Below, one piece after another: positions 19,076-48,983 of a DNA stretch of 64,000 nucleotides; positions within the stretch are counted from its first letter, which is position 1; every line of letters begins with the position of its first letter. The DNA is from Octopus vulgaris (Eukaryota), in NCBI GenBank assembly GCA_951406725.2, contig OX597826.1, positions 12,896,001-12,960,000 on the forward strand, given 5' to 3'. The translations under genes and the position numbers were made by a program. Under the pieces are notes generated by a model, which worked only from the letters and a program-made list of their open reading frames with translations, was not told the origin of the DNA and did not search any database.

Positions 19076-19677
19076 ATTTCTTTATTGCCCACAAGGGGCT
19101 AAACATAGAGGGGGCAAACAAGGACAGACAAAGGGATTAAGTCGATTATATCGACCCCAGTGCAAAACTGGTACTTTATTTATCGATCCCGAAAGGATGA
19201 AAGGCAAAGTCGACCTCGGCGGAATTTGAACTCAGAACGTAACGACAGACGAAATACCTATTTCTTTACTACCCACGAGGGGCTAAACACAAAGAGGACA
19301 AACAAGGACAGACAAACGGATTAAGTCGATTATATCGACCCCAGTGCAAAACTGGTACTTTATTTATCGATCCCGAAAGGATGAAAGGCAAAGTCGGCCT
19401 CGGCGGAATTTGAACTCACAACGTAGCGACAGACGAAATACCTATTTATTTACTACCCACAAGGGGCTAAACACAGAGAGGACAAACAAGGACAGACAAA
19501 CGGATTAAGTCGATTACATCGACCCCAGTGTGTAACTGGTACTTAATTTATCGACCCCGAAAGGATGAAAGACAAAATCGACCTCGGCGGAATTTGAACT
19601 CAGAACGTAACGGCAGACGAAATACCGCTAAGCATTTCGCCCAGCGCGCTAACGTGTCTGCCAGCTCGCCGCCCTCG
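19076..19677 (-). mobile_element. Deu/Nin-like SINE trimer with 17-bp TSD
   Basis: Three units with 184-bp junction spacing. TSD TATAAATAAGTGTATAT at 19059-19075 and 19678-19694. Confidence 0.9.
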
Positions 19678-20712
19678 TATAAATAAGTGTATATTTACAC
19701 ATAAGTGAAGACATGTTGAGCGTTGTGTGCATGTCTTTGATTCGGAATGTCAGTAACTTTATTATACTTTACGATCAACTGCAACACAAATAACTAATTC
19801 AACAGTTATGTGTCTGTGCATTTGTGTTCATAACAAAAGCATGTCGCTTAAGCGGTGCAATTCCAAACTCTGTATGATTATCTTACACACTAGAACATCT
19901 AATTAAATACACAGGGTGATTTAAAACATCGTTTTAGATAGCGGCCGAGACTACTTACGCTCCTACCTTGGCGTGTTATATCTCTCCTCTCTCTTTCTCT
20001 CACTCTCCCTCTCTTTCTCCCCCCCTCTCTCTCTCTCTCTCTCTTTTCATCCGCCACTCTCCCCACCTTTTCACAGCACCCATCACCGATCTCCCTATTG
20101 AATACATTACTCTTCCCTGAATGATTCTCCTCTGTTAATTCCAACAGCTCAGTGTTTCCAGAACATCTGGTCTATTTACTTGCCGTTCACACTACCCACA
20201 AGCAGCCAAGTCGTATATATCCCTTATATATTGCATATATATCCCTTATACACAAAAGGAGCAGTATTAGATTTAAATAGTCATCTAGGTATCATACTTA
20301 ATGTAAATACATCTTGACAGACAGCATTTCTCTGTTGTATTCGTTCGGAGATAATATCTCCGAGGACGGATTTGGGCTTTAAACCACAATATTTTTTATA
20401 TCACAGGGTGACGAAACTGGATCCAGCAGCAGCGAATGAAAACCTCAGCTGAATTTCTACCTCTTCTGCATCATTAATAACGTGTGTGTACTCATAACCA
20501 GCATGTTCAGACGAAATCCTTCAGCATATATATACGAAAACAGTGAAAGCAATCACTGGTGTTGCAAGCACCTATCCGACTAAAAAGCAACATCCATTTT
20601 ATGAAACTAAAGTAGTATTAGATTGAAATGACCATTTATGTCATACCTAGAGTAGATACATTGTATTAGGCAATTCTTCTGTAGTATTCCGTCCGTGATA
20701 TTTTCTAATATG

Positions 20713-21327
20713 AAGGCAGAGAGCTGGCAGAAACGTTAGCACGCCAAGCGAAATGCTTAGCGGTATTTCGTCTGCTGTTACGTTCTGAGTTCAAATTCCG
20801 CCGAGGTCGACTTTGCCTTTGATCCTTTCGGGGTCGATAAATTAAGTACCAATTACGCACTGGGGTCGATGTAATCGACTTAATCCGTTTGTCTGACCTT
20901 GTTTGTCCCCTCTGTGTTTAGCCCCTTGAGGGTGGTAAAGAAATAGGTATTTCGTCTGCTGTTACGTTCTGAGTTCAAATTCCGCCGAGGTCGACTTTGC
21001 CTTTCATCCTTTCGGGGTCGATTAAATAAGTACCAGTTACACACTGGGGTCGGAATAATCAACTTAATCCCTTTCTCTGTCCTTATTTGTCCTCTCTCTG
21101 TTTAACCCCTTGTGGGCAGTAAAGAAATAAGAAACGTTCGCACGCCGGGCGAAATGTTTAGCGGTATTTCGTCTGCCGCTACGTTCTGAGTTCAAATTTC
21201 TTCGAAGTCGATTTTGCCTTTCATCCTTTCAGGATCGATAAATTAAGTACCAGTTGCGTTCTGGGGTCTATCAAATCGACTGGCCCTCTCCCAAAAAATT
21301 TCGTGCCTTGTGCCTAGAGTAGAAAAG
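20713..21327 (+). mobile_element. Deu/Nin-like SINE trimer with 16-bp TSD
   Basis: TSD GATATTTTCTAATATG at 20697-20712 and 21328-21343. The last unit carries the alternative tail (GCCTTGTGCCTAGAGTAGAAAA). Confidence 0.9.
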
Positions 21328-21838
21328 GATATTTTCTAATATGGATGCAAGAGATAGTTCCATCTCCTTCTAATATATCCTTTAGTTGTTTCGGCCATGC
21401 CCCGGGCCACTGCCTTGAAAAATTCTCACTCGAATGAATCGACCCCACTACTTTTTTTTTTTTTTTAAGCGGGGTACTTATTCCGTAGGACACTTTTGCC
21501 GAACCGCTAACTTACAGGGGCGTAAGCACACCAGCAATGGTTTTGAAGCGGTGGTGGGAGACACACACACAAATACATACACACATAAGCACGATGCGCG
21601 CTTCTTTCACTTTCTATCTACGAAATCCACTCACAAGGCTTGGTCTGGTCGGTTCGAGGTTACAGTAGTAGGTACCTGCCCAAGGTGCCACGCTGTGGAA
21701 CTGAACCCGGAACGGTGTGGTTAGGAAGCACAAACCTGCGCCTAAATGTTGGTAAAGAACCGGACAGAAAGAAAAGAATGCAAATAAACAACCTTAGTAT
21801 TTTCAGTGAATGGTTGAAGAGAGAAGAAATTTTCTTAC

Positions 21839-21972
21839 ATGCAATTGCTTATAACGCATCCCAGCAAAATAAATATCGTGGGGCAACGAAATAATATAGT
21901 CATCTTCGGAATGTTCCGCTTTATCATCTCCTGCACCAACACCAAATTCAAAGAGTGGACTGGCATGGATCA
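21839..21972 (-). CDS. mesh/SUSD2-like gene, most 5' coding exon found (pre-NIDO region)
   Basis: Acceptor ttttatctttcag, donor gtaag. 134 nt, phase 1 to 0. Encodes IHASPLFEFGVGAGDDKAEHSEDDYIISLPHDIYFAGMRYKQLH, matching the LxPFG..GD...DD..I.L...F.G..Y..L motif that precedes NIDO domains. Splices in frame to 15937. Confidence 0.88.
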
Positions 21973-22567
21973 CTGAAAGATAAAAGAAACATTATAAACA
22001 CCTTTACTGAAATATTTCAATCTCATTTTCTGGTCGTTTTTTATCATCAATCTTGATAAAGTCGTTCTCATTTACTAATTCTCCTTTTCTAACTGATTCT
22101 TCTATTATTTATTTTATTCTGTTTTATTTTCAGTTGATTGTTTACTTCAATTTTACACTGCGTTGCCCACCGTAATACGATGCAATTTCGCTAAACATCA
22201 ATTCTAAATATGAATCATTTTTTAATTAATGACTGCGCTCTTTAAATTATGATAATGAACCTATAAAAAAAAACATAGATTAAAATCCATGCAGTTAACA
22301 TTTAATAAAAAAAACAATAATGGATTGCAACATTTGCAATGGTATTAGCAACATTAGTTTCTATTTTGGAAAAAATTTTAAGCTACAATAAAAAAAATTT
22401 TCAAGCTACAATAAAAACAGTGTTTTTTACTTTAAGAGTAATAGCAATTTCAACTGCACATTATGAGTGCAAATCTCGAAAGTTGGATGGTAAAAGGAGA
22501 AAAAAATCATAGTCTTTGAATTAAAATGCCATAAAAGGCCGCGCCACATTCCACATACAGAACATCG

Positions 22568-23338
22568 AAAGGCGGTGAGCTGGCAGAAACGTTAGCACGC
22601 CGGGCGAAATGCTTAGCCGTATTTCGTCTGCCGTTACGTTCTGAGTTCAAATTCCGCCGAGGTCGACTTTGCCTTTCATCCTTTCGAAGTCGATAAATTA
22701 AGTACCAGTTACGCACTGGGGTCGATATAATCGACTTAATCCGCTTGTCTGTCCTTGTTTGTCCTCTCTGTGTTTATCCCCTTGTGGGTAGTAAAGAAAT
22801 AGGTATTTCGTCTGCCGCTACGTTCTGAGTTCAAATTCCGCCGAGGTCGACTTTGCCTTTCATCCTTTCGAAGTCGATAAATTAAGTACAAGTTACGCAC
22901 TGGGGTCGATATAATCGACTTAATCCGCTTGTCTGTCCTTGTTTGTCCTCTCTGTGTTTATCCCCTTGTGGGTAGTAAAGAAATAGGTATTTCGTCTGCC
23001 GCTACGTTCTGAGTTCAAATTCCGCCGAGGTCGACTTTGCCTTTCATCCTTTCGAAGTCGATAAATTAAGTACCAGTTACGCACTGGGGTCGATATAATC
23101 GACTTAATCCGCTTGTCTGTCCTTGTTTGTCCTCTCTGTGTTTAGTCCCTTGTGGATAGTAAAGAAATAGGTATTTCGTCTGTCGTTACGTTCTGAGTTC
23201 AAATTCCGCCGAGGTCGACTTTGTCTTTCATCCTTTCGGAGTCGATAAATTAAGTACCAGTTGCGTTCTGGGGCCGATCTAATCAACTGGCCCCTTCCCC
23301 CCAAATTTCTGGCCTTGAGCCTAGAATACTAAAGAATA
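22568..23338 (+). mobile_element. Deu/Nin-like SINE tetramer
   Basis: Junctions at 22802, 22986 and 23170 (184-bp period). The final unit has the alternative tail. Confidence 0.9.
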
Positions 23339-24461
23339 TTGTACAATAGATACGTGTCTGTTAAACAATATTATATGTTAGTAATATTTCCTTTACTGCA
23401 TGCTTTCAGCATTAAATAAAGGATATTCAAATATTATGCTTTGCACTGCCACCGTGTGTATGTAGCCATATTCTAAAATGGCGATGGTATACACAGACAG
23501 TCCAACGTATATATTAGCCAGATAATACATAATAGTGAAACTTCACGTTAATGACAGCGTAGCTAAACTTTTATACTGTTAAATATATACAGTAATGCCT
23601 CACTTTACGAGGAACCGCTTTATGAGATCCCGGGTTTATGAGTTTTATTTCTCAAACACAAGATCCAAATTTTGAACAAAGCGCAAAAGTTTCTGCTTGT
23701 TATCGAGAGATTTATAGAGAGCCAAGAAAAACGCTTCTTCTAAGCAAAGAGATCTGGACTTTACAGTTCTATATTTAAGAGATGAGGAATTATGTACATT
23801 ATTTACATTATTTACATTCGACGGATATTTGTCTTCATCTTCTTTGTTGTTAACACAACGTTTAGGCTGATATACCCACCAACCTTCTTCGGATGTCTTG
23901 CGGAAATTTCGAACGTGGGTTCTCATTCCTAAGGAATGGAGGGTATATCTGCCAAAACGTTGTGTTAACAACAAACAAGATGAGGACAAATATCCGTCGA
24001 ATGTAAATAATGTTAATAATGTAAATAAAGCTCTAGACTTGTTTTTTTTAAAAGAAATCTACAAGTCCGTCTACGAGTGCTTGTGAATCGACGATGATGT
24101 GCGCGAGTGAAAGTGATTGAGTAAACGATTATCATAATAATTTTTTTTTTATTATAAGGAATCTTGACATTCATTTTACTTTACTTAAAATATTCTTTAC
24201 ATTCTGTTGTTTTATTGCCGTTTATTTACGAGTATTATCAATTTTATCGGTAAAATATTTTTCTGAGAACGAATTACGATTTAACATTGCAATAATGGGA
24301 TATAATTGCTCTGCTTTATGAGTTGTCGCTTTACAAGCGGTCTCCGGGATCAAATTAACTCGTATATCAAGGCATGCGAGTACACACCTGCGCACATAAC
24401 TCCTTTCCCACATATAACTGAAACTTTCCCACTTATAACCGAAACCAAAATGAAGACCAGT

Positions 24462-24509
<48 letters not shown>

Positions 24510-25360
24510 AACAACCGATGCCATACAACATAAATTCGTTATTAATTCAAATTATCTCCGTCTTCTGAGAATAATTACCGAATGACAATTTAGATTAGTT
24601 CCATATGAGAAGGGGAAATAATCCCAAGAACTTTGACATACCATTAAGAAAGAAGTGGACAGGCTAATTGTCTAGAGATAAGAGGAAAGTTGTTGTCATG
24701 TATTTCTGCTTCATTTTGCATCATCAGCACGGCAATTGTTCAAACGTATTTCCAGTAACGAAGTGACCTAAACGTATACTAAAATAATAGAACTTGTTTA
24801 TGGCTTTGGTAATACGACTGTATATATGTATGATAATTAGCAAATGGCAATTAAGACCAGCTCCGTATGAGAATGGATGATAATCTTAAGAATCAAGTAT
24901 GCTTCAAAGTTGACATGACATTGAGAGAAAGGACAGGCTTATCGCCAGGAGAAAAGAGGGCAGTCGATAGTATGTGTTTCTGCCTCAATAGGCGTCATCA
25001 GCATGACAGTTGTCGAAGCTTATCTCAAATAGCCAAGAGACGTAGACATACGTAAAAAGAGAACAGATTTATGACCGTGATGATGTGTGTGTGTGCGTGC
25101 GTGCGTGCGTGTGCGTGAGTGTGTGGGCGGGTGTGAGTGTGTGTGTGTGTGTATGCATTAACATTCATATATACACGCATATATTAACACCTGTTAAACC
25201 TATTTACAGTAAGATTTATGAGTTGCAAGAAAGCAATTACTGGGAATTCCAAGTAAAATATTTCAGGTTAAATAATGTTTAGTTACATGCGGATTATTAT
25301 TATAATATAGTGGTGATGAGAAATCATTACCAACATCAACGACTGTAAAAAGCACTATCA

Positions 25361-25737
25361 TCTTTATATATAAAAGAGAAGTTGTGTGTCTGTTTCGTAC
25401 GATTTAGATTCCTAACTACTCCCACATTTTGCGGTGCAGTTTAACCAAAACCGGGTATCTTATAGTCGTGATTCATATCGAGCCCTTCTGGGTATTAGCG
25501 CGCGTCTACAATGAGTCTACGATTTTAAAAAAAATTACCATCATTTTTTTCGCTATTATATAAGGGAAGTAACTCTCTAAAAATGTCTACGATGAGTCAA
25601 CGATTTAAAAAAAAATTTATCATCATTTTTTTCCATTTTTAATGCATTCTTTTGCTATCTTTTGGCTATAACTCTCTAAAAATGCTTATATAGTTATTTC
25701 CCTTACAGACCCGAGCAACGCCGGGCGATACTGCTAG
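25361..25737 (+). mobile_element. Non-autonomous Helitron
   Basis: A|TC...CTAG|T ends, subterminal hairpin CCCGAGCAACGCCGGG, no TSD. Confidence 0.82.
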
Positions 25738-26401
25738 TTAATAATAAAAGCAAAAATTCAAATCAACATCTTCAACGACATCGACAAACGACTAGTTATA
25801 ACTACAAGAATACTATCAACAACAACAACAACAATAACAACATCAACACCAACGCCAACAACTACAAATTCAAGAAATATAGTGTAAACAACATTATCAG
25901 CCTACACCATTAATAACAACAACACCAGCTTTCCTTTCGTAGGTATTTCAGATGTACACGTATGAAGATACCAATATAATAGAAGGATATTGACAAGTTG
26001 AATTTCACTGTTGGGCACAAAGTAGTGCAGCGTCAGTGTCTAGAGACAAACATGTCAAGACTTCAGATAGATGTATAATATTCTTTTGACAGCTCCGCGT
26101 GATGTCTACGCCATTAAAGCTCTTGTGAAATTCATGAACATGACGTAATCTGATTGCGTTTCTCTTTAGTTGTATGATCTGTTGCATAAGCAGAATATTA
26201 TTTGATGATGGGTAATGGCTGAATAGATAATCTTCTAGACCCGGCTTTGTAACATCTTGATTTGTTTTTGTTTTTGTATTTCTTATCTTATTTTATTTTA
26301 TTTAGGATTTGCTGTGCTTTGGGCAAGATAATTCGAATATATCCTGCTGTCGTTTTCTTGCTTGGCAGCAGAGGTAAAAATTAGAAGCGATCGAACGATT
26401 G

Positions 26402-26404
<3 letters not shown>

Positions 26405-26448
<44 letters not shown>

Positions 26449-26914
26449 AGACACACACACATACACACACAGACACACACACGCACACAACCGCACACGA
26501 ATACATACGGACACTCATTTTTATATATATGTATATATGCATATGCCTACATTTCTGTGTGTATGTATATATATATGTATATATATATATGTATATATGT
26601 GTGTATGTATGTATGTATGAATATATATGTATATACATATACATGCATATGTATATATACACATATATATATATGCACATATGTACATGTATATATATAT
26701 ATATATACATGTATATATATACACACATACATACATGTATATATGTGTGAGTGTATGTATGAATATCTCTACCTATGTTTAGCTATATATATACACACAC
26801 ACATATATACACATTTATATATACGTATATATACTTGTATACATATACATATATTTATACATACATACACACATACATACATACATACATACATACATAC
26901 ATTTACACACACAC

Positions 26915-26947
<33 letters not shown>

Positions 26948-27007
26948 CATACATTTACACACACACGCACACATACACACATACACGTACGCACACACAC
27001 GCACACA

Positions 27008-27057
<50 letters not shown>
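26405..27057. repeat. Compound (CA)n/(TA)n/(TACA)n microsatellite
   Basis: Low-complexity tract seen directly. Confidence 0.95.
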
Positions 27058-27058
<1 letters not shown>

Positions 27059-27739
27059 GCATAATGACTGGAAGGAGAAAAGCAGTGAAATAATTTGCGA
27101 TCTTGAGTTCAGATGAGACGAGAATAAACTTGAAATGAAGAAAGATTTTGCATTGATTTCTTAAAATTTCTTTTTAAATATCCTAAAGGATCTTGTCAGC
27201 CCACCTTAACACTTTTTCATTGATTGGTGAACATTGAAATGGGTTGGTGGGAATCTTACATATAAGCGAATTTTGTGAGAATGTTTCGTGTTTAACTAAA
27301 TAACTATTTCTTTATTGCCCACAAGGGGCTAGACATAGAGGGGACAAACAAGGACAGACAAAGGGATTAAGTCGATTAGATCGACCCCAGTGCGTAACTG
27401 GTACTTAATTTATCGACCCCGAAAGGATGAAAAGCAAAGTTGACCTCGGCGGAATTTGAACTCAGAACGTAAAGACAGACGAAATACCGCCAAGCATTTC
27501 GCCCGGCGTGCTAACGTTTCTGCCAGCTCGCCGCCTTTTCTATCGTACAATATTGAGCTCTTCCTGTACTTTCTCTATGCTGTTTTACGCGCAAAAAACT
27601 AAAAACCCTGAGACACGCACACACACACACACACACACGCACAAATGCACACACGCACACACACACTCACACACACACAAAATGACTTTTAAGCGTATTT
27701 TTGGTTCACCTTCTAAAACTAACTAGGCAATATACTCTT

Positions 27740-28115
27740 ACTCTCTTTTACTCTTTCACTTGTTTCAGTCATTTGACTGCGGCCATGCTGGAGCACCGCC
27801 TTTAATCGAGCAAATCGACCCCGGGACTTATTCTTTTGTAAGCCTAGTACTTATTCTATCGGTCTCTTTTGCCGAACCGCTAAGTAACGGGGACATAAAC
27901 AAACCAGCATCGGTTGTCAAACAATGCTAGGGGGACAAACACATATATACGACGGGCTTCTTTTCAGTTTCCGTCTACCAAATCCACTCACAAGGCTTTT
28001 GTCGGCCCGAGGCTATAGCAGAAGACACTTGCCCAAGGTGCCACGCAGTGGGACTGAACCCGGAACCATCTGGTTGGTAAACAAGCTACTTATCACACAG
28101 CCACTCCTGCGCCTA
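27740..28115 (-). mobile_element. CORE-like SINE, full length
   Basis: Head AGGCGCAGGAGTGGCTGTG..GGTTCAGTCCC and CTTGGGCAAGTGTCTT core. Other copies at about 21382-21735, 30518-30928, 31655-32120, 34250-34654, 39050-39459, 43980-44378 and 54280-54748 (all minus), and 8082-8210, 58204-58680 and 58700-59105 (plus). Confidence 0.85.
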
Positions 28116-28534
28116 TATAGTGTATAATTCTGTTAAACATTATGTGGAAAAGAAGCTTTGGTTTTTCTTAATGAAAATTTTGATTTTAATAAAATTGCTG
28201 TAATTTTTGACGACGCACAACGTGTACTTAACTGCGTGTTGGCCGTGTGGAAAGTATACTCGGCCGTTTAAGTGATGGCACCGTTATAAAATTAACTAGC
28301 TATTTGTTGCTTACTTTCTTGCGTTCTATTTCCTCCAGCAGGGGAAATTACATAGATCTGACTGAAGTCTTATCAGACGAACCTTTATTCCTCATCCAGT
28401 TAACACTAATAAAGACCGGGATGAAGACCCATCTCATGGATTTTTGAGTTTTAGAATGGAAAGCAAAGAAACAGCTTTAGCGTTTAACAGAATAGCCAAA
28501 GGAAATTAGCTTCAGCCTAACAAATTATTGTTGC

Positions 28535-29003
28535 GGATCTTTTCTGTTTGAACGGCAGATTTTTAAAATAATTCCCACGTAACTAAACACTTTTAAACTT
28601 CGAATACTGGTAGAATGTGTTTATAAAACATCTTTTTCTCTTGGCTTTATTGAGAAAATTCTATAGTTTGTAAGATATTTGTTGTTTATTTTCTTCAATT
28701 TCTGCAATTTCAACCAATCGATGACATCTATTGAGGTAAAAAAAAAAAAGCATTCTGTGCCGTATGAATATGTTCCTCATTTAAGAAACAGATTGGGTTT
28801 ATATACATTTCTGAAGAAAAAAGATACCCTTCCCCCACCCCTAACCCGAACCCGAACCCGAACCCTAACTCGAACCCTAACCCTAACTAACCCTAACCCT
28901 AAAACAGATTGAAATGCAATAGATCGATACTAGGGTCATAATTATGGGTGACAATTTCATATGACACAGCTAGAAAAAACTGCCGTTCAAACCGAAAAGT
29001 TCC
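28535..29003. mobile_element. Merlin-like MITE containing telomere-like repeats
   Basis: About 29-bp TIRs beginning GG (GGATCTTTTCTGTTTGAACGGCAG and CTGCCGTTCAAACCGAAAAGTTCC). 8-bp TSD ATTGTTGC at 28527-28534 and 29004-29011. Confidence 0.8.
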
Positions 29004-29038
29004 ATTGTTGCCAGTGCACAATTTTATTTATTAACAAA

Positions 29039-29403
29039 CTAGCAGTATCGCCCGGCGTTACTCAGGTTTGTAAGGGAAATAACTATAAAGCATTTTTAGA
29101 GAGTTATAGCCAAAAAATAGCAAAAAAATGGAAAAAAAATTATGGTAAATTTTTTTTGAGTTAAAAAAGGTCGAGTTGCGTCCCCTAGATAGTCTGTGGT
29201 TTGTGTTTCTGATTCTCGACCCCATGTCGAATTTATCGATTTTTTTCAGAACTGGGGGAACTTTTCAAAATTTTCGCTGCGTTAGTTTTGAATTATGACA
29301 TTAGGCTATGTGTGTGTCAAGTTTCATCAGAATCGGTTGAGGGTACAACCAAACAGACACACAGAAACACACACAGACAAACTGCCGTTTATATAGAGAG
29401 AGA
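29039..29403 (-). mobile_element. Non-autonomous Helitron
   Basis: Minus strand A|TCTCTCTCTATATAAACGGC...CCTGAGTAACGCCGGGCGATACTGCTAG|T. Confidence 0.8.
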
Positions 29404-33657: not shown

Positions 33658-33888
33658 AGGCGGCGAGCTGGCAGACACGTTAGCGCGCCGGGCGAAATGC
33701 TTAGCGGTATTTCGTCTGCCGTTGCGTTCTGAGTTCAAATTCTGCCGAGGTCGACTTTGCCTTTCATCCTTTCGGGGTCGATAAATTAAGTACCAGTTTC
33801 GCACTGGGGTCGATGTAATCGACTTAATCCGTTTGTCTGTCCTTGTTTGTCCCCTCTATGTTTAGCCCCCTGTGGGCAATAAAGAAAT
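33658..33888 (+). mobile_element. Deu/Nin-like SINE monomer (reference copy)
   Basis: Full-length unit flanked by TATAATTTAGAAC repeats. Other monomers at about 11602, 13850, 16140, 16440, 18535, 27305, 35713, 38328, 45075, 48038 and 62120. Confidence 0.9.
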
Positions 33889-35966
33889 ATATAATTTAGA
33901 ACTTATCTACCAGAGTTGTCCATCTTAATGCAATTTATGTTAGTATTCACATGGGCCACCAGTAGGTGTCGCTACGTTTTATATCAGGGACTACGTTATA
34001 GCAAACAGTTTGGCAATGAAACTCATCATTCGACACTTTGCTGTGCCAAAAGATGCAGCAGATTTTTTTCAGACATACCATGTGGACATCATTGATCTTA
34101 TTCGTGTCTCAGTTTACCACTTGCTAACATTCTGAAACAAGCATTAGGACATATATGACACAGCTGTTATACTGAGAATAATTCGAACAAGGTACATTTA
34201 CAATGGAGGAAACTAAATGAGATTTCATATCACGGTTAAACTCTCTTTGCTCTCTTTTACTTGTTTCAGTCATTTGACTGCGGCCATGCTGGAGCACCGC
34301 CTTTAGTCGAGCAAATCGACCCCTGGACTTATTATTTGTAAGCCCAGTACTTATTCTATCGGTCTCTTTTGCCGAACCGCTAAGTTACAGGGACGTAAAC
34401 ACACCAGCATCGGTTGTCAAGCAATGCTAAGGGGACAAACACAGACACACAGACACACACACATATATAAATATATATATACATATATACGACGGGCTTC
34501 TTTCAGTTTCCGTCTACCAAATCCACTCACAAGGCATTGGTCGGCCCGGGGCTATAGCAGAAGACACTTGCCCAAGATGCCACGCAGTGGGACTGAACTC
34601 GCAACCATGTGGTTGGTTAGCAAGCTACTTACCACACAGCCACTCCTGCGCCTATGTTTTGTGGGTTTTTTTTTGTTTTTTTGGTGGGGTTTTGCATAGA
34701 TATCTTGAATATAGCTGTTCCTCAACATCCACCTTCCCGTCATCAATAATTATTCTAAATTCAATTCATACGTTGAAATCACAACCTCTCTCTCTCCCCC
34801 TCTCTCTCTCTCACTCTCTCTCTCTCTCTCTCTCACTCTCTCTTTATCTATCTCTCTATCTATTTATCTTTTATCGCTGAAGTCATCATCCTTGTTGACT
34901 TCAGTCTATTCAACTTCTGGCTTTTGTACTCAGTCGACACTGACAATGCTACTGTTATATCGCCCAAGAATTGAACACGTTTCCCTGACACACCGTGGAC
35001 TATCCTAATTCTTTTTTTTTTTATACAACGGCCTGCCTATCTCATCCTCGTCACCACTGTTATATCGCAATACTACACAGTGGCTGTATGAGCATCTCAT
35101 CCTCGTCGCAACTGTTATATCGCGATATAACAATGGCGACGAGGATTTCGTCGCACACACAGCCACTGTGTAGGTTTGCGATATAACAGCTACTTAAACA
35201 GAAGCTCAATTAACTTTCCGAACAATCTGTAATCATGTAGTATCCACACTGATATCCCAGTTTCTCTTGACCGTTTTCTGTGCTACAAATCCAGCCCTTT
35301 TCTAAACATTACCGTCTGTCTTATCTGATTCTTGCCTAATCAAGGTAATGCACAATACATCTTCCTACTAGCACCGGAGACTAACCATACCTATAGCAGT
35401 AAATACGTTTCCCTATTGACATATCAGATGCAGTTAATCTTTCTCACTTAAAGAACATTGCCAAAACTGCAACACAAAAGACTCTTCTCTATAACCTGAA
35501 AATAAATTAATTTTGATCAGTCGTTGACCTACTAGAATTTTTACGTCAGAAATGCAATGGAGTATTGGGCAATATCTTTCATGTTTCAGGCAAGCGCACC
35601 AAATCGAAGCCAAAATTATCATTCACCAGTATGCCTCAGTTACTAACTTACAAACGCTCATTCTTTTCTCCTTTTTCTTCTACTATTCCAACGGTCTCTG
35701 TACCTTTGTGACGGCGGCGAGCTGGCAGAAACATTAGCACGCCGGGCGAAATGCGTAGCCGTATTTCGTCTGCCGTTACGTTGTGAGTTCAAATTCCGCC
35801 GAGGTCGACTTTGCCTGTCATCCTTTCGAGGTCGATAAATTAAGTACCAGTTACGCACTGGGGTCGATGTAATCGACTTAATACCTATGTCTGTCTTTGT
35901 TTGTCCCCTCTATGTTTAGCCCCTGTTTAGGTCTCTGTACCTTTGAACTGCATATATATATGTGTG

Positions 35967-37187: not shown

Positions 37188-37232
37188 TAAATACACATAT
37201 ATATATACACATATATATATACTTATATATAT

Positions 37233-37281
<49 letters not shown>

Positions 37282-37287
37282 GCATGC

Positions 37288-37341
<54 letters not shown>

Positions 37342-40300
37342 ACACACATACATAAATGCATGTTCTTCAAATACATTTGCATACTTATATATGCTCGCAT
37401 ATATATACGCTGGTGTGCATATAATCGTGACTATAAACAATCAACAATCGACAGCAATAACGGAAAATAAATTTTCTTATCTGCCTAGCAACGTTAACAA
37501 GCTTAAGAAGAAATCAAAACAGATTGATAGAAAACGTTAATCGTAGCATGGTGGTGAGAAACGAGTTGACTGCAATACTATCTTTTGTAACGGACAGAAA
37601 AGGATTATGAGTCTTTAGATACGGAAACATGTTGGAAAATTCTGAGAAAATTTGAAGGAGTTATGTTTTACCTACGATGGGTGCAGACATATATATATTT
37701 TTTCCTGGGATTCACTCCGGACGCTTGTTATCCATTTTGGAATATATCTGTCCGAGATATGCGTTTTAGGCGAACAAATAAATAGATTTTATTTGATCCA
37801 GAAGCACTTACGAGAAAACAGTTTTTCGACAATGCAGACTTGACAACGAAAATATGTTAATACCTATGATGTTTAGATATAAATGTTCTCGTGTTCGTTA
37901 CATTTTTGTGTGGGTGTAATAGGAGAGACACAGAGACAGAGGTGCAGACAGACATTGGCAGACAGAGAAAGATAGAGGGAGAGAGTGTGAGCGAAAGAGA
38001 GAGATAAAATTAACTGAACAGGTGGAGACTTCGCTGTTCTTCTCATCATGAAAAGCAAAACGCTCGGTCTTAGTGTTTAGTTATTTTGAATTTAGTATTG
38101 TAAATTATTTCTTTAGAATTGGTTGATATTATTCATTTGTATCTTGTTTGTTGAAACCCTCACACGACACGAAAATAACATTTGCAACAATTTTAGAGCA
38201 TAAGGTTTCAAATCGTGTGACTTCAAATTGTAGGGTTACCGAACCGCAAGGTACGACTCCAATGACCCACTGTTCAGTTCACTGTTTGTGCAAACCATAA
38301 ACTGGAACTATATTTCATATTAGGAAGGGCGGCGAGCTGGCAGAAACGTTAGCACGCCGGGCGAAATGCTTAGCCGTATTCGTCTGCCGTTACGTTCTGA
38401 GTTCAAATTCCGCTGAGGTCGACTTTGCCTTTCATCCTTTCGGGGTCGATAAATCAAGTACCAGTTACGAACTGGGGTCGATGTAATCGACTTAATCCCT
38501 TTGTCCTTGTTTGTCCCCTCTGTGTTTGGCCCTTTGTGGGTAGTAAAGAAATATATATTTCATATTAGGTGAGTGCCTGGTTCGGTTTCATTTCCTGACT
38601 GGAGCATTACAATTGACGTTTCACTTTCCGTTTTCTGAACGAAACTGGAATAAACATTGCAAATTTGCATTTCCTATTCTTTAAAAGGCTCTGAGGTCTA
38701 AAATTTGAAGCAATTAATTCTGCCCAAAACTTCATTCTTAGACTAAAGTGTCTGTGTCAGATTACTTTGCTATGTCATATGACAAAAAGTCAAAAACTTT
38801 TCAGAGACACACCAATAATTCAATAGGTTATACTTTGATATATTTGGATGACTTGACCTGACCAGGTCATGTCTAACTTAATAGCCCTACTTGGTTTTGT
38901 TTAGAAAATTGAATTGTGATATTTTTGACAGATAAAATATTTTATTTCTTCTCTTCTGTTATTCCAGTTCTGACATTTAATAAAATAAACATTTCTCTTG
39001 AAACTCTTTGGGATAAACAACCTATTTCTACTTCGTCCTGTCTTTTATGCTTTTACTTGTTTCAGTCATTTGATTGCGGCCATGCTGGAGCACCGCCTTG
39101 AGTCGAGTAAATCGACCCTCAGGACTTATTCTTTGTAAGCCTGGTACTTATTCTAACGTTTTCTTTTTGCCGAACCGCTAAGTTACGGGGACGTAAACAC
39201 CTCAGCAATCGGTTGTCAAGCGATGGGGGGGGGACAAACACAGACACACAAACATATACCCATACATATATATATATATATATATACATATGTTCGACGG
39301 GTTTCTTTCAGTTTCTGCCTACCAAATCCACTCACAAGGCTTTGGTCGGCCCGAGACTATAGTAGACGACACTTGCCCAAGGTGCCATGCAGTGGGAATG
39401 AACCCAGAACCATGTGGTTGGTAAGCTAATTACTTATCACACAGCCACTCCTGCGCCTATGTTATTGAACTAATACAATTTTACCTTCTTCAACACAGCA
39501 CTAGCGTTTTGGCAACTTTGTTTTACTCTTTGCAGCTAAAAAAAGAAATCGGCTTTCAAGGCATTTTTGACACTCCTTGAAACATGGCTGTAACCTATCA
39601 AATTTATTAGTTGACCTATTAGGCAATATCTCTTGAAAAGTCTCAAGATATATCCCTCTTCACACATAAACTGAATGATTCAGCGACTTTTAAATATGCA
39701 TGATTAGGATATAAATTTTATCTACAAAGAAAATAATAAAACTATTGCTTTAGCTACATATCACCGCCCCAGAAATGAATTTAGTTTTTAAAATATTTAC
39801 TTCAGAGAATATGGCCACTGTGGTTTTCTCCAACAAAATTACTTTAAAGTACAGCATTCTATACAAGTAGTATACATTAACTGGGTTTTTCTCTTTTTCT
39901 CTCTTCACTGACCAAATTTCAATTGTCAATTCTCAGAAACTGGAAATTCCTACTACTGCCAGTTTTTTTGTTGTTTTTTTTTTGAGAGAGAGAGAGAGAT
40001 TGGCATTACTCTCTATTTTTCATTAAACTTCAAACTTTAAAATGCCCTTTTGTCTGTTAAGCTTCTTAAACAACAACAACAAAATCAGAATAGCTCATGT
40101 TTGATGAGAACAAGCTGAAACTAAATTTATCTACACACGTCCATCGTTTGTAATCTCATGGTTTTGTGTCAAGTAAACAGCATCCGCATTGCAGCTGAAT
40201 AGGTTCCCCGTTAAAGCTGAACAGTTTCCGCATTACAAGGGCAAGATTGTAAAAGTTATAGAACCATTTAGAGAGATTTCGTTCGGAACAACCTAATGCA

Positions 40301-40382
40301 AAATATATTTAACTTTGCTTCGGTGACGTCTTCTTTCGATTTCGGAGCTAACGATATAATTGAATATACGTTAAAGAAGTTA

Positions 40383-40751
40383 TCTCTATATATATAAACG
40401 GCAAAATATCTGTGTGTGTGTGTGTCCTTTATACAAAGCCACATTTTTTTAGTTAGAGGGCTCGCACTTTCTATGGTCATTCAAAACAGTCCAAGGGTAG
40501 TCGTGCACATCTTTACATTTCCTCCGGTCACCCCGCAAAGCCATTAAAAAATCAATAGAAGTGACTTTTTTGTGAATTTTCTATCCAAAACCCAAAGAAA
40601 ATGCCCAAAACTTGATACGTCAATTGAATGCCAGCTAGCTGTATGTGATTGGTCGGAGATTTGGACAGTACTCGCGTATATGTGTGCACGCACGCAGCTG
40701 TATATGCATGCACTAGCACTATGACCCGGTGTTGCCGGGTCATAGTGCTAG
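40383..40751 (+). mobile_element. Non-autonomous Helitron
   Basis: A|TC start; perfect 13-bp hairpin CACTATGACCCGG-TGTTG-CCGGGTCATAGTG immediately before CTAG|T. Confidence 0.8.
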
Positions 40752-41045
40752 TAAAGTATAAAGAGAGAACATGTCAGTTTGACACCTGAGATGTGGTAGA
40801 CGTGAGGTATGAAAGTGACCACTGAGAAATTTGAGATGAAGTGATTTGAGCAAGAATGCAACGCCTCATCCGATCCCAGAACTGAAACCACGATCTCATG
40901 GTCGCGAGGCCATTCGCCCACACACACATACAAACTTAATGAGTGTGTGTGTGTCTGTGTTTGTGTATGTGTGCGTGTGTGTATGTATGTGTGTGCGTGC
41001 ATGCGTGCGCGCGTGTGCGTGTGTGGACATTAATATAAAAGTTTC

Positions 41046-41207
41046 CAAGACATTCACAAGACGTTCACAAGACGTTCACAAGACGTTCACAAGACGTTCA
41101 CAAGACGTTCACAAGACGTTCACAAGACGTTCACAAGACGTTCACAAGACGTTCACAAGACGTTCACAAGACGTTCACAAGACGTTCACAAGACGTTCAC
41201 AAGACGT
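41046..41207. repeat. 11-bp minisatellite (CAAGACGTTCA), about 14-15 copies
   Basis: Nearly perfect tandem array seen directly. Confidence 0.97.
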
Positions 41208-43159
41208 CTCAGCAACTTCAACCGAGAAAATACACAACACACAGTAGGAATCATTTACAGTAAACAAAACGTAAGTGGAGGCGCGTCGCTTAGTGGTTAG
41301 GGTGTCAGCATCATGATCGTTAGATTGTGGTTTCGATTCCTGGACCGGGCGACGCGTTGTGTTCTTGAGCAAAACACTTCCTTTCACGTTGCTCCAGTCC
41401 ACTCAGCTGGCAAAAATGAGTAACGCTGCGATGGACTGGCGTCTCGTCCAGCTGGGGAACACATACGCCATAGAAACCGGGAAACCAGGCCCATGAGCCT
41501 GGCTTAGGCTTTAAAAGGGCGCATTTATTTATTATTAAACTAAACTAAGAAAACAATTGCAGTGTGGAAGGTGTTTATAAGCCATTTAAGAAACACACAA
41601 AAACCGTTGGATTCACTTCAACATTTAAATTTAATTTGTCAGCACAGAATTTTGTCAGTGAGCAGCTCGCGGTCTCAAAGCGACGAAAATATTTTGGAAA
41701 ATTAAATTTAAATATTGAAGTGAATCTAACGGCTTTTGTGTGTTTCTTACATGGCTTATAAACCCCATCCACGCTGCAATTGTTTTCGTTCCAGCACACG
41801 ATCTCATATCAGGTTACTTGCTATGTAAGTACATCGTAAAAACTAAGGATTATTTCCCTAAGTAAAAATAAGTATTAATTCAATACCATTCTGAAATTCA
41901 ATGCAATTCTAATGTAGCATTTTATTTTTCAAGAGCTCCAAAGGATTATTGATTTCCCAGAATGGGTCACCATGATGGTAAAAACGTGGGAAGTGCTGTT
42001 TCAGCTAAGAGTAATATTTATTTCCAATTTTGGCACAAGGGCAGAAACCTTAGGAGATTACATTCACCCTAGTCCTTCAATTGATACTCATTTCATCAAT
42101 CCAAAGACAATGAAAAGAGATAGAAGACCTCGGCGGAATTTGAACTCAGAACGTAAAGCTGGAAAAAATGTTGCTAAGCATTTTCTCCAGTATGCTAACG
42201 ATTCCGCCAGGCTGCTTCTTTACAGTAATTCTTCCAATTGATTGGTGCAATGCCTGAAATTTGGGAGAAGGTAGCTAGTTGATTACATCGACCCTAATGC
42301 TCAAATTGTTCTTATTTTATAGACCCAGAAAGGATAACAGGCAAAGTCGATCTCGGCGGAATTTGAACTCAGAACATAAAGAGCTAGAAGGAATGCCGCA
42401 AAGCATTTATGTCCGACGTGCTAACGATTCGGCCAACTCGCCGCCTTAAATGAATGTAATAATATAAGGAAACCGTAACATCTATACCTTTCCCATTCCA
42501 TTGATATGAAGAATACAGACGAAATGAAACTGCTTCAATTAAAAATAGCAACAAGATGCAGTCTGATGACAGATTACTCATAGCAGGGAGGGAAAAAAAC
42601 TATATAATTAATTTCCATGGTGATAATTGTAATTAAAGAAGGCGTTTATATTTGTCCAATTTTGCAACATGAACATAATTAGAGTATTCATAAATACCGA
42701 ACAGGTGTTAAATCTTGCTTCTGTAAGACACTATGGTATACTATGGTATATATAATCAGGTGCAAAGACTCCAAGGTAAAACAACCTTAATATAGAAATG
42801 TCATTAAACACAACAAAAGACGATATAAAGCGAAAAATCAATCGATATAAGAAGTTAACTAATTTTCTTATAGATTAGATTCACCTTCACGCTAGACGAA
42901 CGCTTGACCTTTACAGGTCGCATCTTAACTCCTGTTACTGCTTGACCTCAAAGAGCATGTGAATATGTCTCTCACACGCATGCACATACACGCATCTGTG
43001 CGTACACGAACACACAAGCACACACACACATACACACACACAAGCACACACACACATACACACACACAAGCACATATAAACACGCATAAACACACACACA
43101 TATTCCTCAAAGTACACATGAGCATATGTATGTATGGGTGATATTTATAGGGGTATATG

Positions 43160-43560
43160 AAGGCGGCGAGCTGGCAGAATCGTTAGCACGCCGGGCGAAA
43201 TGCGTAGCCGTATTTCGTTTGCCGTTACGTTCTGAGTTCAAATTCCGCTGAAGTCGACTTCGCCTTTCATCCTTTGGGGTCAATATAATCGCACTGATGT
43301 CAATATAATCGACTTAATACGTTTGTCTGTCCTTGTTTGTCCTCTGTGTTTAGCCCCTTGTGGGTAGTAAAGAAATAGGTATTTCGCCCGTCGCTACGTT
43401 CTGAGTTCAAATTCTGCCGAGGTCGACTTTGCCTTTCATCCTTTCGGGGTCGATTAAATAAGTACCAGTTACGCACTGGTGTCGATATAATCGACTTAAT
43501 CCGTTTGTCTTTCATTATTTGTCCCCTCTATGTTTTGCCCCTTGTGGGTAATAAAGAAAC
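43160..43560 (+). mobile_element. Deu/Nin-like SINE dimer
   Basis: Junction AAAGAAATA|GGTATTTC at 43377/43378. Confidence 0.85.
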
Positions 43561-43939
43561 AGATATTTATATGGGTATATAGATACACACACATAGGTAT
43601 ATATTCAATTCGTCCTTAGTCGAAAGACACATGTTGTTATTTTTATTGTATTCACATTTGTGTAACATTGTCCGTTTTTTACGTCCTTGTTTTTGTATAC
43701 ATTCGCTGCTTTCTTTCAAGGAATCTAATGCTCTTAGCTTAGTTTTTCCTCGAGGCTGGCTAGACTGGAGCAATCTCAAGACTAATCAGCCGAAATTGCT
43801 AGGATAATCTGGTGCTTGACTGAAGAAAGAAAACTCCGAATGACTTGTCCTTGTTTTCTTTGTATCGTCTATCTGGATGTTTTGCTGTCCCCTTTTGTAT
43901 CACCTAACTGTCTGGATGTTTTGCGTTCTTGTCCCATTT

Positions 43940-43979
<40 letters not shown>

Positions 43980-44380
43980 TCTTTTACCTTTTGACTGCGG
44001 CTATGCTGGAGCGTTACCTCTAGTCGAACAAATCAACCCCCAGAACTCATTTAAAAAAAAATCCTAGTACTTATTCTATCAGCCTTTTTCGCCGAAGTGC
44101 TAAGTCATGGAGACGTAAACACTTCCGCACCGGTTGTCATGCGTTAGTGGGGGGGGGACAATCACAGTCACAAATGTACACACAAACACATGTATTTAAT
44201 ATATATATATATATGTACGACAGGCTTCTTTCAGTTTCCGTTTATCAAATACACTCACAAGGCTTTGGTCGGCCGCTTCTGTAATAGAAGATACTTGCCT
44301 AAGGTGACATGCGGTGATGGAAATGAACTCAGAACCATGTGGTTGGTAAGCAAGCTACTTACCACACAACCATGCCTGTG

Positions 44381-44418
<38 letters not shown>

Positions 44419-44626
44419 CATACATACATATTTATATACATACATACATACATACATACATACATACATACATACATACATACATACATACATACATACA
44501 TACATACATACATACATACACACACATACTAACACAACACATATATACATACTAACACATACACACACAAATACATACATACATACATAATATTTATATA
44601 CATACATACATACATACATACATACA

Positions 44627-44657
<31 letters not shown>

Positions 44658-46474
44658 GAGTTTTCTGAGCTTAGAGACTGTCTCGATTAAATGAGAGTGA
44701 CGCTCGGGTGCGGTAGTTTACGTGGAAATTTAAGGTATGAGACTTTATCCTTGATAGAAAAAATGAGATTACGCCAGTGATGTACCGGAAGAAGAGAGAA
44801 CTGAACAAAACCGAACCCTACCGTATACCAGAACTGATGATAAGTCAAAGATAGATATCTGAGCACAGGCCGACAGAAAGCTGTGACAGACTGACACCGT
44901 TCCAAGATACGTGACGCAGTGGGAGCCCATAAATGAAAAGTTTTAACAAGAAATGTGCGTGCCAGACACAGTCGAAAGCTTTAGCGTCATGAGGATTCTA
45001 ACAGTTTCCATCAAAATTCTCAAGAATGGGAGTCCACGAACACATGATTTACGGGGAGCGGTTTTCTGTACAAATATAGGTTTCAAATTTTGGTACAAGG
45101 CCAACAAGCTCAGGGAGGGGGTCTGTGTCGATTACATCGACCCCAGTGCTCAACTGGTACTTATGTTGTTGACGCCGAAAGGATGAAAGGCAAAGTCGAC
45201 CTCGGCGGGATTTGAACTCAGAACATAAAGGCAGACGAAATGCCGCTAAACTTACTGTCCGACGTGTTAACGATTCTGCCAGCTCGCCACCTTACGCTTT
45301 ACTAATATTGTGTGTGTGTCTACAGATGTGAAATCGTGTCCACGTGCAACCTTCGAGTTTTTCTATCCCAAAAGGGTTTTTTAGCTCAATATCTCATTTA
45401 TAGGTTTATGTGCTTCGAGATGCGTTATGCCAAAAATGAATTATTTCCTGTTCTCTCGTTCGTCTTTATAAATTCTAATGACATCAGCAACATGTATGTA
45501 TGTATGTATGTATGTATGTATGTATGTATGTATGCATGCATGCATGCATGTATGTATGTATGTATGTATGTATGTATGTATGTATTTATGTATGTATGTA
45601 TGTATGTATGTATGTACGTATGTATGTATGGTGGTAGGGTGTGTGAGTGCTGGCTTGGCGGAGAAGGAAGTATATGCAGACTCGAACCAGGTTAATGAAG
45701 TTTTGCTGCCCTTTATGAAAATCATCATCAGCAAAAGCAATGTGAGAATCGAAAATTTGAAATGACCATTTATCGCAGTATGCATAAACATCGTCATAGC
45801 AGCCATTATATTGAGTCAATAAGGAGACGTAATTATATTTCTGATAAGAATCATTAAAACGTCATTAACATATCAACATATACCATTAGTATATACCATT
45901 AATTCCTCATATCTTATAATACACAAGAGTTTTGTTAGTTTTAGTACTCAGTTAAAACACTCCCATAAGTAATAGCTTGCTTTAGGACAGTCCCTCGCCA
46001 ATGACACTAAATATCTTCGTTTGTTTTGTTGGGGGTTTTTTAAGATAAAGAAAGGAGCTACCTATTACGTATCGTACTACTATATTCTTCCTCCTTGCAC
46101 CATCATTTCAAAGAATGATTTTTCAGATTTTCTTGGAAGAATACAAAAGTGGTTTTCTCTTGTCTTTTTACGAGACATTAACTTGTCAGTTACATATGGA
46201 GATGTTCGCCAGCCTGGCGAGTAAGAAAATAAGGAGATGGAACAAACGCCACTAAACATTTTATTGGAAGCTCTAATAAATCCATTCATCTATGCCTCTG
46301 GATTGGTATTTTATTTTATCGACCTGACTCTAGAACGATCAACCGTAAAGTTAACCGCGGCGGATTTGAACTCAAAATGTTAAAAAACCTGAACACACAC
46401 TTTAAGCCATTTGGTCCGGTACTCTATCGATCGTAGCAATTTGGTTCAAGACACGCCGTATTTGAATAAAATAT

Positions 46475-47303
46475 GGCTTTTCTACTCTAGGCACAAGGCT
46501 CGAAATTTTGGGGGAGGAGGCCAGTCGATTAGATCGATCCAGTACGCAATTGCTATTTGATTTATCGACCTCGAAAGGATTAAAAGACAAAGTCGACCTC
46601 GGTGGAATTTGAACTCAGAACGTAGCGGCAGACGAAATACCTATTTCTTTACTACCCACAAGGGGCTCAACACAAAGAGGACAAACAAGGACAGACAAAC
46701 GAATAAATTCGATTTACCACCCACAAGGGGTTAAACACGGAGAGGACAAACAAGGGCAGACAAACGGATTAAGTCGATTTCATCGACCCCAGTAACTGGT
46801 ATTTATTTAACCGATCCCGAAAGGATGAAAGGCAAAGTCGACCCCGGCGGAATTTGAACTCAGAACGTTACGGTAGACGAAATACCTATTTCTTTACTAC
46901 CCACAAGGGGCTAAACACAGAGGGGACAAACAAGGACAGACAAACGGATTAAGTCGATTATATCGACCCCAGTGCGTAACTTGTACTTATTTAATCGACC
47001 CCGAAAGGATGAAAGGCAAAGTCGACCTCGGCGGAATTTGAACTCAGAACGTAACGGCAGACGAAATACCTATTTCTTTACTACCCACAAGGGGATAAAC
47101 ATAGAGGGGACAAACAAGGTCAGACAAACGGACTTAATCGATTATATCGACCCCAGTGCGTAACTGGTACTTATTTAATCGACCCCGAAAGGATGAAAGA
47201 CAAAGTCGACCTCGGCGGAATTTGAACTCAGAACGTAACGGCAGACGAAATACCGCTAAGCATTTCACCCGGCGTGCTAACGATTCTGCCAGCTCATCAC
47301 CTT
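46475..47303 (-). mobile_element. Deu/Nin-like SINE multimer (four units plus a partial tail duplication)
   Basis: Junctions at 46641, 46886 and 47070. The terminal unit has the alternative tail. Confidence 0.88.
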
Positions 47304-48591
47304 ATTGCCAGCTCGCTATATTGGCTATTCATGGCTGGAGCTCCTTTCATCAGGAGTCTGTTTAATTAGGATTATGACCTAAACAACAAAATAACAAAAG
47401 TTAACATAGACTCAAAACCATAAATTTAGTTCAGGGAATCAGTTTATTCCATCTACGTTGAGTATTTGAACATACTTTTACTAAATTGCTCCGGGATTTA
47501 TGAAAGAGCAACTTTGAACTCGGACGTAGAGAGACAGCACTAAATATCTCATGGCATTTCTGTCAGTCGTTTTAACGATTCTGTTATCCAACGCCAAGCA
47601 ATGAGTGAACCTCTATGCAAACGCCCGACCTACTAGAAATGATAGCCAACCTCTCCCACAATATACTGCCTAAAAACACAACAAGGAGAACACACTGTGT
47701 AATGTAATCTTAGACACACTATTTCCGAAAAAGAAAAACTGAGCGGCCACAACTGAAACAGAGACAGAAAAACGGATTAAGTCCATAATAATATCAACCC
47801 CAGTGCGTAACTGGTACTTATTTAATAGACACCGAAAGGATGAAAGGCAAAGTCGACCTCGGCAGAATTTGAACTCAGAACGTAGCGGCAGACGAAATAC
47901 CTGTTCCTTTACTACTCACAAGGAGCTAAACACAGAGAGGACAAACAAGGACAGACAAGCGGATTAAGTCGATTATAGTTTGTGATATAATTATTGAGAT
48001 GGGGTTAAGCTACAATGACACGGTATTAATTAGAAAAGGCGAACTTGGCAGAAGCGTTAGCACACCGGGCGAAATGCGTAGCCGTATTTCGTCTGCCATT
48101 ACGTTCTGAGTTCAAATTCCGCCGAGGTCGACTTTGAATTTCATCCTTTCCGGGTCGATAAATTAAGTACCAGTTATGCACTGGGGTCGATGTAATCGAC
48201 TTCATCCGTTTGTTTGTCCCCTCTGTGTTTAGCTCCTTGTGGGTAGTAAAGAAATAGGTATTAATTAGAAAATTATAGGTAACACAACATATGAGTGTAG
48301 GTGTATGTGTTTGTGTGTGTGTATGTGTTTTTGTTCAATCAATAGTTTCAAATGTTGGCACAAGGCCAGCAATTTTAGGGTGGGATAATCGATTACACTG
48401 ACCTCAGTTCTCAACTGGTATTTATTTTATCGATCTCGAAAAGACGAAAGGCAAAGTCGACCTCGGCGGAATTTGAACTCAGATCATAATGTCCGAAAAT
48501 TACTATCAGGCATTTTTGTGCTAACGTTTCTGCCAGCGACAACTCGACAAGATGCTAATTAAACAGAAAATAGCCTAAAGACTCAAATATA

Positions 48592-48983
48592 CTTTTCTAC
48601 TCGAGGCACAAGGCCCGAAATTTGGAAGGAGGGGGCCAGTCGATTAGATCGACCCCAGTACACAGTTGGTACTTAATTTATTGACCCCGAAAGGATGAAA
48701 GGCAGAGTCAACCTCGGCGGAATTTGAACTCAGAATGTTACTGTAGACGAAATACCTATTTCTTTACCACCCACAAGGGGTTAAACACAGAGAGGACAAA
48801 CAAGGACAGACAAACTGATTAAGTCGATTTCATCGACCCCAGTAACTGGTATTTATTTAACCGATCCCGAAAGGATGAAAGGCAAAGTGGACCTCGGCGG
48901 AATTTGAACTCAGAACATAACGACAGAGGAAATACGGCTACGCATTTCGCCCGGCGTGCTAACTTTTCTGCCAGCTCGCCGCT
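48592..48983 (-). mobile_element. Deu/Nin-like SINE dimer
   Basis: Junction at 48756/48757. The terminal unit has the alternative tail. Confidence 0.85.

Follow-up and report, generated by a model that had tools for sequence, protein, structure and literature searches.

Composite SINE arrays in Octopus vulgaris have base-exact junctions and tail-specific target words that match the following unit

A 64,000-nucleotide stretch of the Octopus vulgaris genome (contig OX597826.1, positions 12,896,001 to 12,960,000; hereafter the window, in which positions are counted from 1) contains monomers and tandem arrays of a SINE, a short and interspersed element of 231 bp without an open reading frame, whose tail has 53,614 exact matches in the 2.8-Gb genome. 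Unit positions 1-231 refer to one C219 monomer (33659..33889, plus strand; Table 1). Beside the window we sampled 291 loci, 1.39 Mb in total, of which 600 kb (L031-070, L101-120) was unselected for position, the other loci having been picked by junction, tail or nesting patterns; 484 SINE loci were kept once duplicates and loci touching an edge had been dropped. Head and body (1-166) are common to all unit types. A units end in the tail 167-231, of which there are two variants, T219 and C219 (the latter with 173C, 200A and 221A); these are about four bases apart, of one age, and co-occur within single arrays. B1 units have a separate tail and five body letters (61T, 63T, 141G, 144T and 157C), and B2 and B3 are older relatives. 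Target-site duplications (TSDs) vary from 9 to 27 bp, mostly 13-19. The head, of 85 bases, contains what we take, by consensus, to be an A-box-like (7-18) and a B-box-like (73-85) motif, and 98-140 may resemble the Deu/Nin central domain; neither a tRNA gene (ARAGORN) nor an Rfam family at gathering score was matched in the window. Octopus OR2 is listed as a CORE SINE in the passages of the literature available to us. At most SINE 5′ ends two A bases stand between the TSD and the GGCGG head (for example at 20713-20714 and 22569-22570), so that the true 5′ end of the element, or of its transcript, may lie two bases upstream of that head.

The initial annotation of the window had reported SINE concatemers with one invariant junction. 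All twelve junctions that it listed between the tail and position 48 are present where it placed them, each joining 231 to 48 without a gap, and we reproduced the seven array loci, the 184-bp period and the different terminal tail in four arrays (21281, 23288, 46523 and 48638). The junction word proposed there, AAAGAAATA joined to GGTATTTCG, is exact in ten of the twelve; the tail is changed at 19442 (AAATAAATA) and 47901 (AAAGGAACA). The words noted behind monomers are also there, two of them at offset positions (GATATTT from 43562, TATATTT at 38552-38554). The head hairpin (35-56) folds (z -1.7). The GAAATA-GG-TATTTC palindrome said to be recreated at the junction does not fold more stably than shuffled sequence (z +0.36 and -0.74), and neither this fold nor Rfam, without a match at gathering score, supports a palindrome or ribozyme there as a functional signal. 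Nor is the junction invariant: a second one, joining 231 to 15, occurs even inside the window, between 21129 and 21130.

Table 1. SINE arrays, monomers and flanking duplications in the window (positions from the start of the window).
Feature	Position	Strand	Remarks
Trimer: head unit 1-231 and two 48-231 units, C219 tail on the last	19075..19673	-	
16-bp TSD around that trimer, 3′ copy	19059..19074	-	5′ copy 19678-19693
Trimer: T219, junction 48, C219, junction 15 (between 21129 and 21130), B1 with tail end GTAGAAAAG	20715..21327	+	
16-bp TSD of the T219-C219-B1 trimer, 3′ copy	21328..21343	+	5′ copy 20697-20712
Tetramer: three T219 units (1.6-2.2% apart) and a B-tail unit	22571..23340	+	TSD not found
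Dimer, 13% between units	43162..43561	+	one 19-bp TSD (43140-43158, 43562-43580)
Array: three T219 units, 65-bp partial tail duplication, B1 unit	46477..47301	-	TSD not found
Dimer truncated 5′ and 3′	47756..47975	-	junction 48 at 47901
A-B1 dimer	48590..48983	-	one 11-bp TSD (48579-48589, 48988-48998)
T219 monomer	48038..48256	+	GGTATT starts both TSD copies
C219 monomer (coordinate ruler)	33659..33889	+	head 1-85 (hairpin at 35-56); body common to all unit types up to 166; A tail 167-231
C219 monomer	27305..27535	-	TSD not found
T219 monomer	38328..38553	+	16-bp TSD beginning TATATTT
A monomer	18528..18759	-	TSD not found
T219 monomer	62119..62356	-	TSD beginning TGTAT

Both junctions recur throughout the genome. 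The exact 29-base junction at 48 has 20,831 copies (none for the reversed control), and the junction at 15 has 2,187 matches. Among junctions in the first 630 kb of sampled loci and the window, 230 kb of which had been chosen around junction matches, 101 of 121 are exactly 231 to 48; at position-unselected loci and in the window the figure is 37 of 41. Arrays start at the head in 94 of 104 cases. Their architectures are several, with two junction types, at least three terminal unit types and various orders, and one order (T219, junction 48, C219, junction 15, B1) is repeated at window position 20715 and at L025, L142, L166, L184, L189 and L195. Loci with two or more pieces make up 29 of 69 A-tail loci in the unselected DNA and window, and none of 69 unselected loci has more than five pieces. 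Assembly artefact was ruled out by the diverged units, the number of junction copies, and contigs from four other runs in which the flanks of the window arrays abut SINE ends (these contigs break at the SINE, and none spans an array). Runs labelled as RNA contain 6-10% of the sequence words. Other array periods, of ~165 and ~190 bp (L030:1389-1900, L286), are rarer local duplications with different borders.

We found that one TSD encloses 35 of 71 headed clean arrays with an A or B1 end, compared with 24 of 53 A monomers and 0-1% of shuffled pairings. The same holds for four of the seven window arrays and for 13 of 19 arrays in a tail-matched set, for which a single exact pattern selected the B1 tails (79 in 90 loci). 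The ages of the units, as judged by CpG decay, agree within this set: terminal B1 units (23/150, 0.153), first units (20/131, 0.153) and heads (19/113) are about as young as A monomers (65/443), whereas B1 monomers (107/257, 0.416) and their heads (73/197) are far older (Fisher P 2e-8 and 2e-4). In A-A arrays the first and last units have decayed equally (0.174 versus 0.166, P 0.78). Even head bases 1-20 are young (0.175 versus 0.374), and of the 42 heads of A-B1 arrays 10-11 carry the A-type letters 43G/48C, as against 1-2 of 33 B1 monomers. The B1 letters at 61 and 63 are present in 7 and 6 of 42 first units, as against 31 and 29 of 42 last units; no hidden TSD was found at these letters within the first unit of A-B1 arrays. 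The old and more numerous B2/B3 tails end just one of 72 clean arrays. Because one TSD encloses the arrays and their units are of about equal age, the arrays were mostly inserted whole, as composites. With one enclosing TSD, units of one age and a recurring architecture, they have the features of composite multimeric SINEs, the units after junction 15 being the exception.

The two A tails differ in what follows them. T219 stands before junction 48 in all 37 unselected cases and in 27 of the 29 that were selected by B1, and C219 stands before junction 15 in three of three and four of four, respectively; with a pattern permitting both letters, C stands before junction 15 in 86 of the first 100 genome matches. 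A parallel difference is seen where a terminal A unit meets non-SINE flank. This flank begins GG after 32 of 67 T219 but 4 of 42 C219 tails, and AGA after 1 of 67 T219 but 12 of 42 C219 tails (P ~3e-5 for both); its likeness to GGTATTT fades past the seventh base. When the first two bases were excluded from TSD scoring, the pre-existing TSD copy was found to begin GG in 11 of 22 T219 and 1 of 16 C219 cases (P 0.005; background GG 3.4%); AG begins none of the 22 T219 copies and 7 of the 16 C219 copies (P 0.0009). These letters were therefore already present in the target, and the proposal that the bases after the tail mirror the target stands. The target starts GG-TAT after T219, as does position 48, and AG-AA after C219, as does position 15; TAT or TAC occupies target positions 3-5 in 17 of 22 T219 TSDs. 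An array of the order C219-C219-T219 has a GGTAC TSD (L198), and T219-C219 arrays have AGAAA TSDs (L152, L161). This is a double dissociation: T219 goes with junction 48 and GG targets, C219 with junction 15 and AG targets. In target-primed reverse transcription the first TSD bases mark where primer and RNA meet, as established for L1, CR1, L2 and RTE in the sections of PMC6007223 available to us, and in R2Ol the pairing of read-through RNA with the target fixes where reverse transcription begins, according to the corresponding sections of PMC6795142. Given this primer position and the identity of target word and next unit, we infer that the RNA likely extends beyond the tail and that read-through RNA likely helps to choose insertion sites. 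An endonuclease preference, notably for TAT at target positions 3-5, may add to the choice.

The initial annotation had also suggested that existing copies are preferred targets. This is borne out at position 48, where the pattern of a nested insertion (host head, duplicated bases, new head) has 58 matches, compared with 11 at 70-85 and 11 (eight loci) at 10-26, all being raw matches uncorrected for motif conservation. Among 29 nested loci, 22 resume at 48, and in ten host-specific letters are duplicated on both sides; several hosts are old B2/B3. Thus, self-targeting exists, in the form of ordinary nested insertion. A host head lies upstream of one of 71 clean arrays. If its own head drove transcription, a nested copy would read exactly head, A tail, junction 48 and host, so nesting followed by carry-over of the host 3′ part likely makes new masters. 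In seven of the 58 matches, on five contigs (L156, L159, L174 and others), the nested junction reads TCTGCCG-AA-head, some of these copies having a 65-bp head duplication, and this form may itself have been amplified. At L111 (minus strand, 9702-8975) full-length A, A and B1 copies lie with bases 48-74 between them, and private changes are common to both A copies.

Some arrays have grown further after insertion. Middle units differ by a median of 0.5% (19 pairs in seven arrays, eight pairs from one array) as against 9.5% between arrays, and the variants that they hold in common often straddle unit borders (L029, L136, L008, L026); such near-identical units (0-1%) are younger than the insertion of the array. 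The low divergence and the border-straddling variants therefore point to expansion in DNA with the junction kept. Long homogenised arrays, with four or more middle units, are a minority (L026, L028). One of them, L028:6072-8100, has eleven units, ten almost identical A units and a last B1, and resembles an incipient satellite. At L142-L147 (C1 15.78 Mb) a 101-bp piece, made of the B1 3′ part and the TSD, is repeated at least six times past a six-unit array, an expansion of the TSD-(SINE-TSD)n type.

A candidate partner was found among long interspersed elements (LINEs). Over its last 50 bases the A tail aligns to a LINE 3′ end with scores of 52-64, where the best of 300 shuffles reached 35-39, and this LINE, which is young and ends in (TATC)n, has zf-RVT and RVT_1 (E 3e-6, just under the Pfam cut-off on a fragment). 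It looks like a member of the Tx1 clade; the alignment points to a Tx1-like LINE as the candidate partner of A-tail SINEs. Other LINE ends in the sampled loci, judged by eye, were unlike the SINE tail. A LINE family at L206-L220 (e.g. L218:1-1816), with reverse transcriptase and zf-RVT, is young, its copies being 92-99% alike; it has a pyrimidine-rich 3′ untranslated region, and its copies are bordered at one end or both by (TATC)n, which suggests microsatellite targeting.

Taken together, we consider it probable that the composite arrays arise from read-through RNA polymerase III transcripts of stacked masters, which a Tx1-like LINE would reverse transcribe while the bases of the next unit pair with the target. 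With an A-box-like motif in the first unit alone and no run of four T in the unit consensus, the transcript would run through all units. An early stop through CpG decay to GGTATTTTG was considered; it is found at 6 of 182 junctions and hence is not general, and a few masters could matter. The Tx1-like LINE could start reverse transcription at any tail, T219, C219 or B1, in keeping with the correlation between tail and target, and the first bases of the following unit, pairing with the cut target, would bias the choice of site. Nested insertions of the ordinary kind, bearing a TSD, occur at position 48 of other copies. A transcript begun at the inner head would then carry the host 3′ part along and yield a new master with an unchanged junction, which would account for one junction standing before several terminal unit types. 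Some arrays later gain near-identical units in place, presumably by unequal exchange that keeps the junction. More tentatively, and with somewhat less than an even chance in our estimate, the system may be a self-guided ratchet, in which the part of the head behind the tail steers the RNA into other copies of the superfamily and the stacking order sets the target preference. If so, nested insertions yield longer masters that take over the tail of the host and gain a new guide word, the target preference evolves with stacking order, and dead relatives regain transposition.

Several observations weigh against this scheme. No TSD could be detected around half of the arrays. In the 42 unmatched arrays terminal B1 units are more decayed than first units (0.233 versus 0.155, P 0.002); after junction 48 (n=32) the values are 0.182 and 0.140, a slight difference that lies mostly at one site, and after junction 15 (n=16) they are 0.303 and 0.167, a clear one. 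A single young master does not explain the older units after junction 15; older terminal units could stem from several masters that arose on older hosts, or from partial growth in place. Seven of the 29 nested loci fail to resume at 48 and are probably head duplications, which the 58 matches thus include. A mirror hot spot predicted at 15 was not seen (none of eight loci has a C219 insert resuming at 15). The likeness of SINE tail to LINE tail is only ~75-85%, RVT_1 falls below the cut-off on the fragment, and the B tails had no match among LINE ends. Finally, the model is built on genomic sequence, the transcript, the end of the RNA and the polymerase being inferred rather than observed.

The main rival does away with RNA guidance: T219 and C219 would be moved by different LINE endonucleases favouring GGTAT and AGAAA, so that junctions and flank words are both products of endonuclease preference and composite masters do the remainder. 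Target choice by Tx1 elements is indeed said to depend mainly on the endonuclease (in the part of PMC4494074 available to us), the TAT/TAC of T219 TSDs is similar to both the (TATC)n that flanks the LINE and the AATATT that follows B1, and nesting of C219 at 15 was not found. However, the two tails are nearly identical, equally old and present inside the same arrays, and each target word exactly equals the unit behind that tail, including at L198, L152 and L161. We regard this explanation as unlikely, if the strongest of the alternatives.

The explanation favoured by the initial annotation, growth in place, has new units entering at 48 and fusing with the old head by 5′ homologous annealing without an inner TSD. 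In its favour, position 48 does serve as a target, the terminal B1 units that follow junction 15 are older than first units, and the two units of a dimer often differ as much as random pairs do (median 0.099 versus 0.095). Yet it predicts older terminal units, and in the tail-matched set these equal first units while B1 monomers are far older; heads down to bases 1-20 are as young as A monomers and bear A-type 43G/48C, B1 letters at 61/63 are scarce in first units, and old B2/B3 tails hardly ever end an array. Because of the single TSD and the young terminal B1 units we reject in-place self-insertion as the main route, and consider it improbable.

A similarly small chance is left to re-copying, in which the reverse transcriptase, having reached 48, would return to the same word behind the tail, or else go round a circle of 184 nt, and so add identical units. 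The T219-only trimers L014, L020 and L101, whose units are 3-5% apart with rare variants in all of them, fit identity at insertion, and four of seven T219-ended dimers have a rare variant in both units (0.04 expected per pair); either uniform masters or re-copying could have produced such trimers. Against this, most arrays mix T219, C219 and B1 units, variants run across unit borders as exchange between repeats would give, and the most similar middle units postdate insertion. A headless circle cannot yield 94 of 104 head-started arrays, so rolling-circle copying, another proposal of the annotation, is rejected; the hallmarks of retrozymes are likewise missing, as no self-cleaving ribozyme was matched in Rfam at gathering score and the arrays mostly start at the head and mix unit types instead of having one type with permuted ends. 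Among the annotation's alternatives, a master copy of several units plus local duplication comes closest, but there are several composite architectures rather than one dimer. A single dimeric master varied by slippage or assembly error has the expansions in DNA at L026 and L028 in its favour, but is rejected as hardly credible because the architectures vary, in junction type, terminal unit and unit divergence, and the array flanks recur in other runs' contigs.

Elsewhere in the window, old B2/B3 relatives lie head to tail in or beside (ATT)n tracts (4759-6551, 16177-16631, 42056-42445), and their ATT-like tails match the tracts where they cluster. Further repeats are found at 4835-5429, 14919-15363 and 41046-41207: the very long tracts (ATT)198 and (GAA)148, and an 11-bp repeat of 14.7 copies that is 99% pure.

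These arrays offer a natural genome-scale test of RNA-target pairing against endonuclease in the site choice of non-LTR elements, because two tails of the same age and almost the same sequence go with different target words, each equal to the unit behind it. For the dating of bursts, repeat libraries of such genomes should count each array as a single insertion. We found no report of octopus-type arrays, of a self-guided SINE or of tail-specific words copying the next unit in the literature searched, which leaves aside Repbase/Dfam, subscription articles, the OR1/OR2 papers and supplements; nor are such arrays described in the passages compared of a 2026 octopus repeat annotation (PMC13282606).

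Judged by the accessible portions of the papers cited here, the array architecture has been published for a clam, and multimers or SINE satellites for rodents and reptiles; the tail-specific target words are the new part. In the blood clam Scapharca broughtonii, TSD1-(SINE)n-TSD1 arrays, ascribed to recombination, account for 3% of SINEs (PMC11481361), whereas 29 of 69 A-tail loci in unselected DNA and the window are multi-unit here. Both have a full head on the first unit (in the octopus a putatively tRNA-related one), the same head truncation in later ones and one TSD, and the octopus element may, like that of the clam, be a tRNA SINE of mollusc type. The inner tails of the clam are truncated, while those of the octopus are complete and probably usable, and its target words track the next unit. 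The SINE-derived satellites (sSat) of squamates are likewise tandem repeats of part of a SINE, uniform in long arrays, but their authors report no true dimeric SINEs and invoke unequal recombination (PMC10702118); here the short arrays themselves transpose. The octopus arrays also suggest a way, open to test, in which dispersed SINEs could become tandem arrays, a step for which the authors on squamates and clams appeal to recombination. Alu, mouse B1/B2 dimers and jerboa Dip multimers are also head-to-tail, some with composite templates, but are built of full-length units via A-rich tails, their origin being left open (PMC8466645, PMC10702118); here the junctions lie inside the head and are base-exact, and copying can probably start at inner tails. 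Pairing of RNA beyond the element's end with the cut target is common to R2Ol/R1Bm and to RTE, CR1 and L2 (PMC6795142, PMC6007223). Their guide is rRNA or a microsatellite tail, whereas here it would be the SINE's own head, so that copies become targets. SINEU with Tx1 LINEs, and Tx1L inserted into Tx1D, share a Tx1-type partner, a preference for repeated targets and tandem insertions; SINEU tandems, however, sandwich a TSD and target another transposon (PMC4494074), while the clean arrays described here have no inner TSD.

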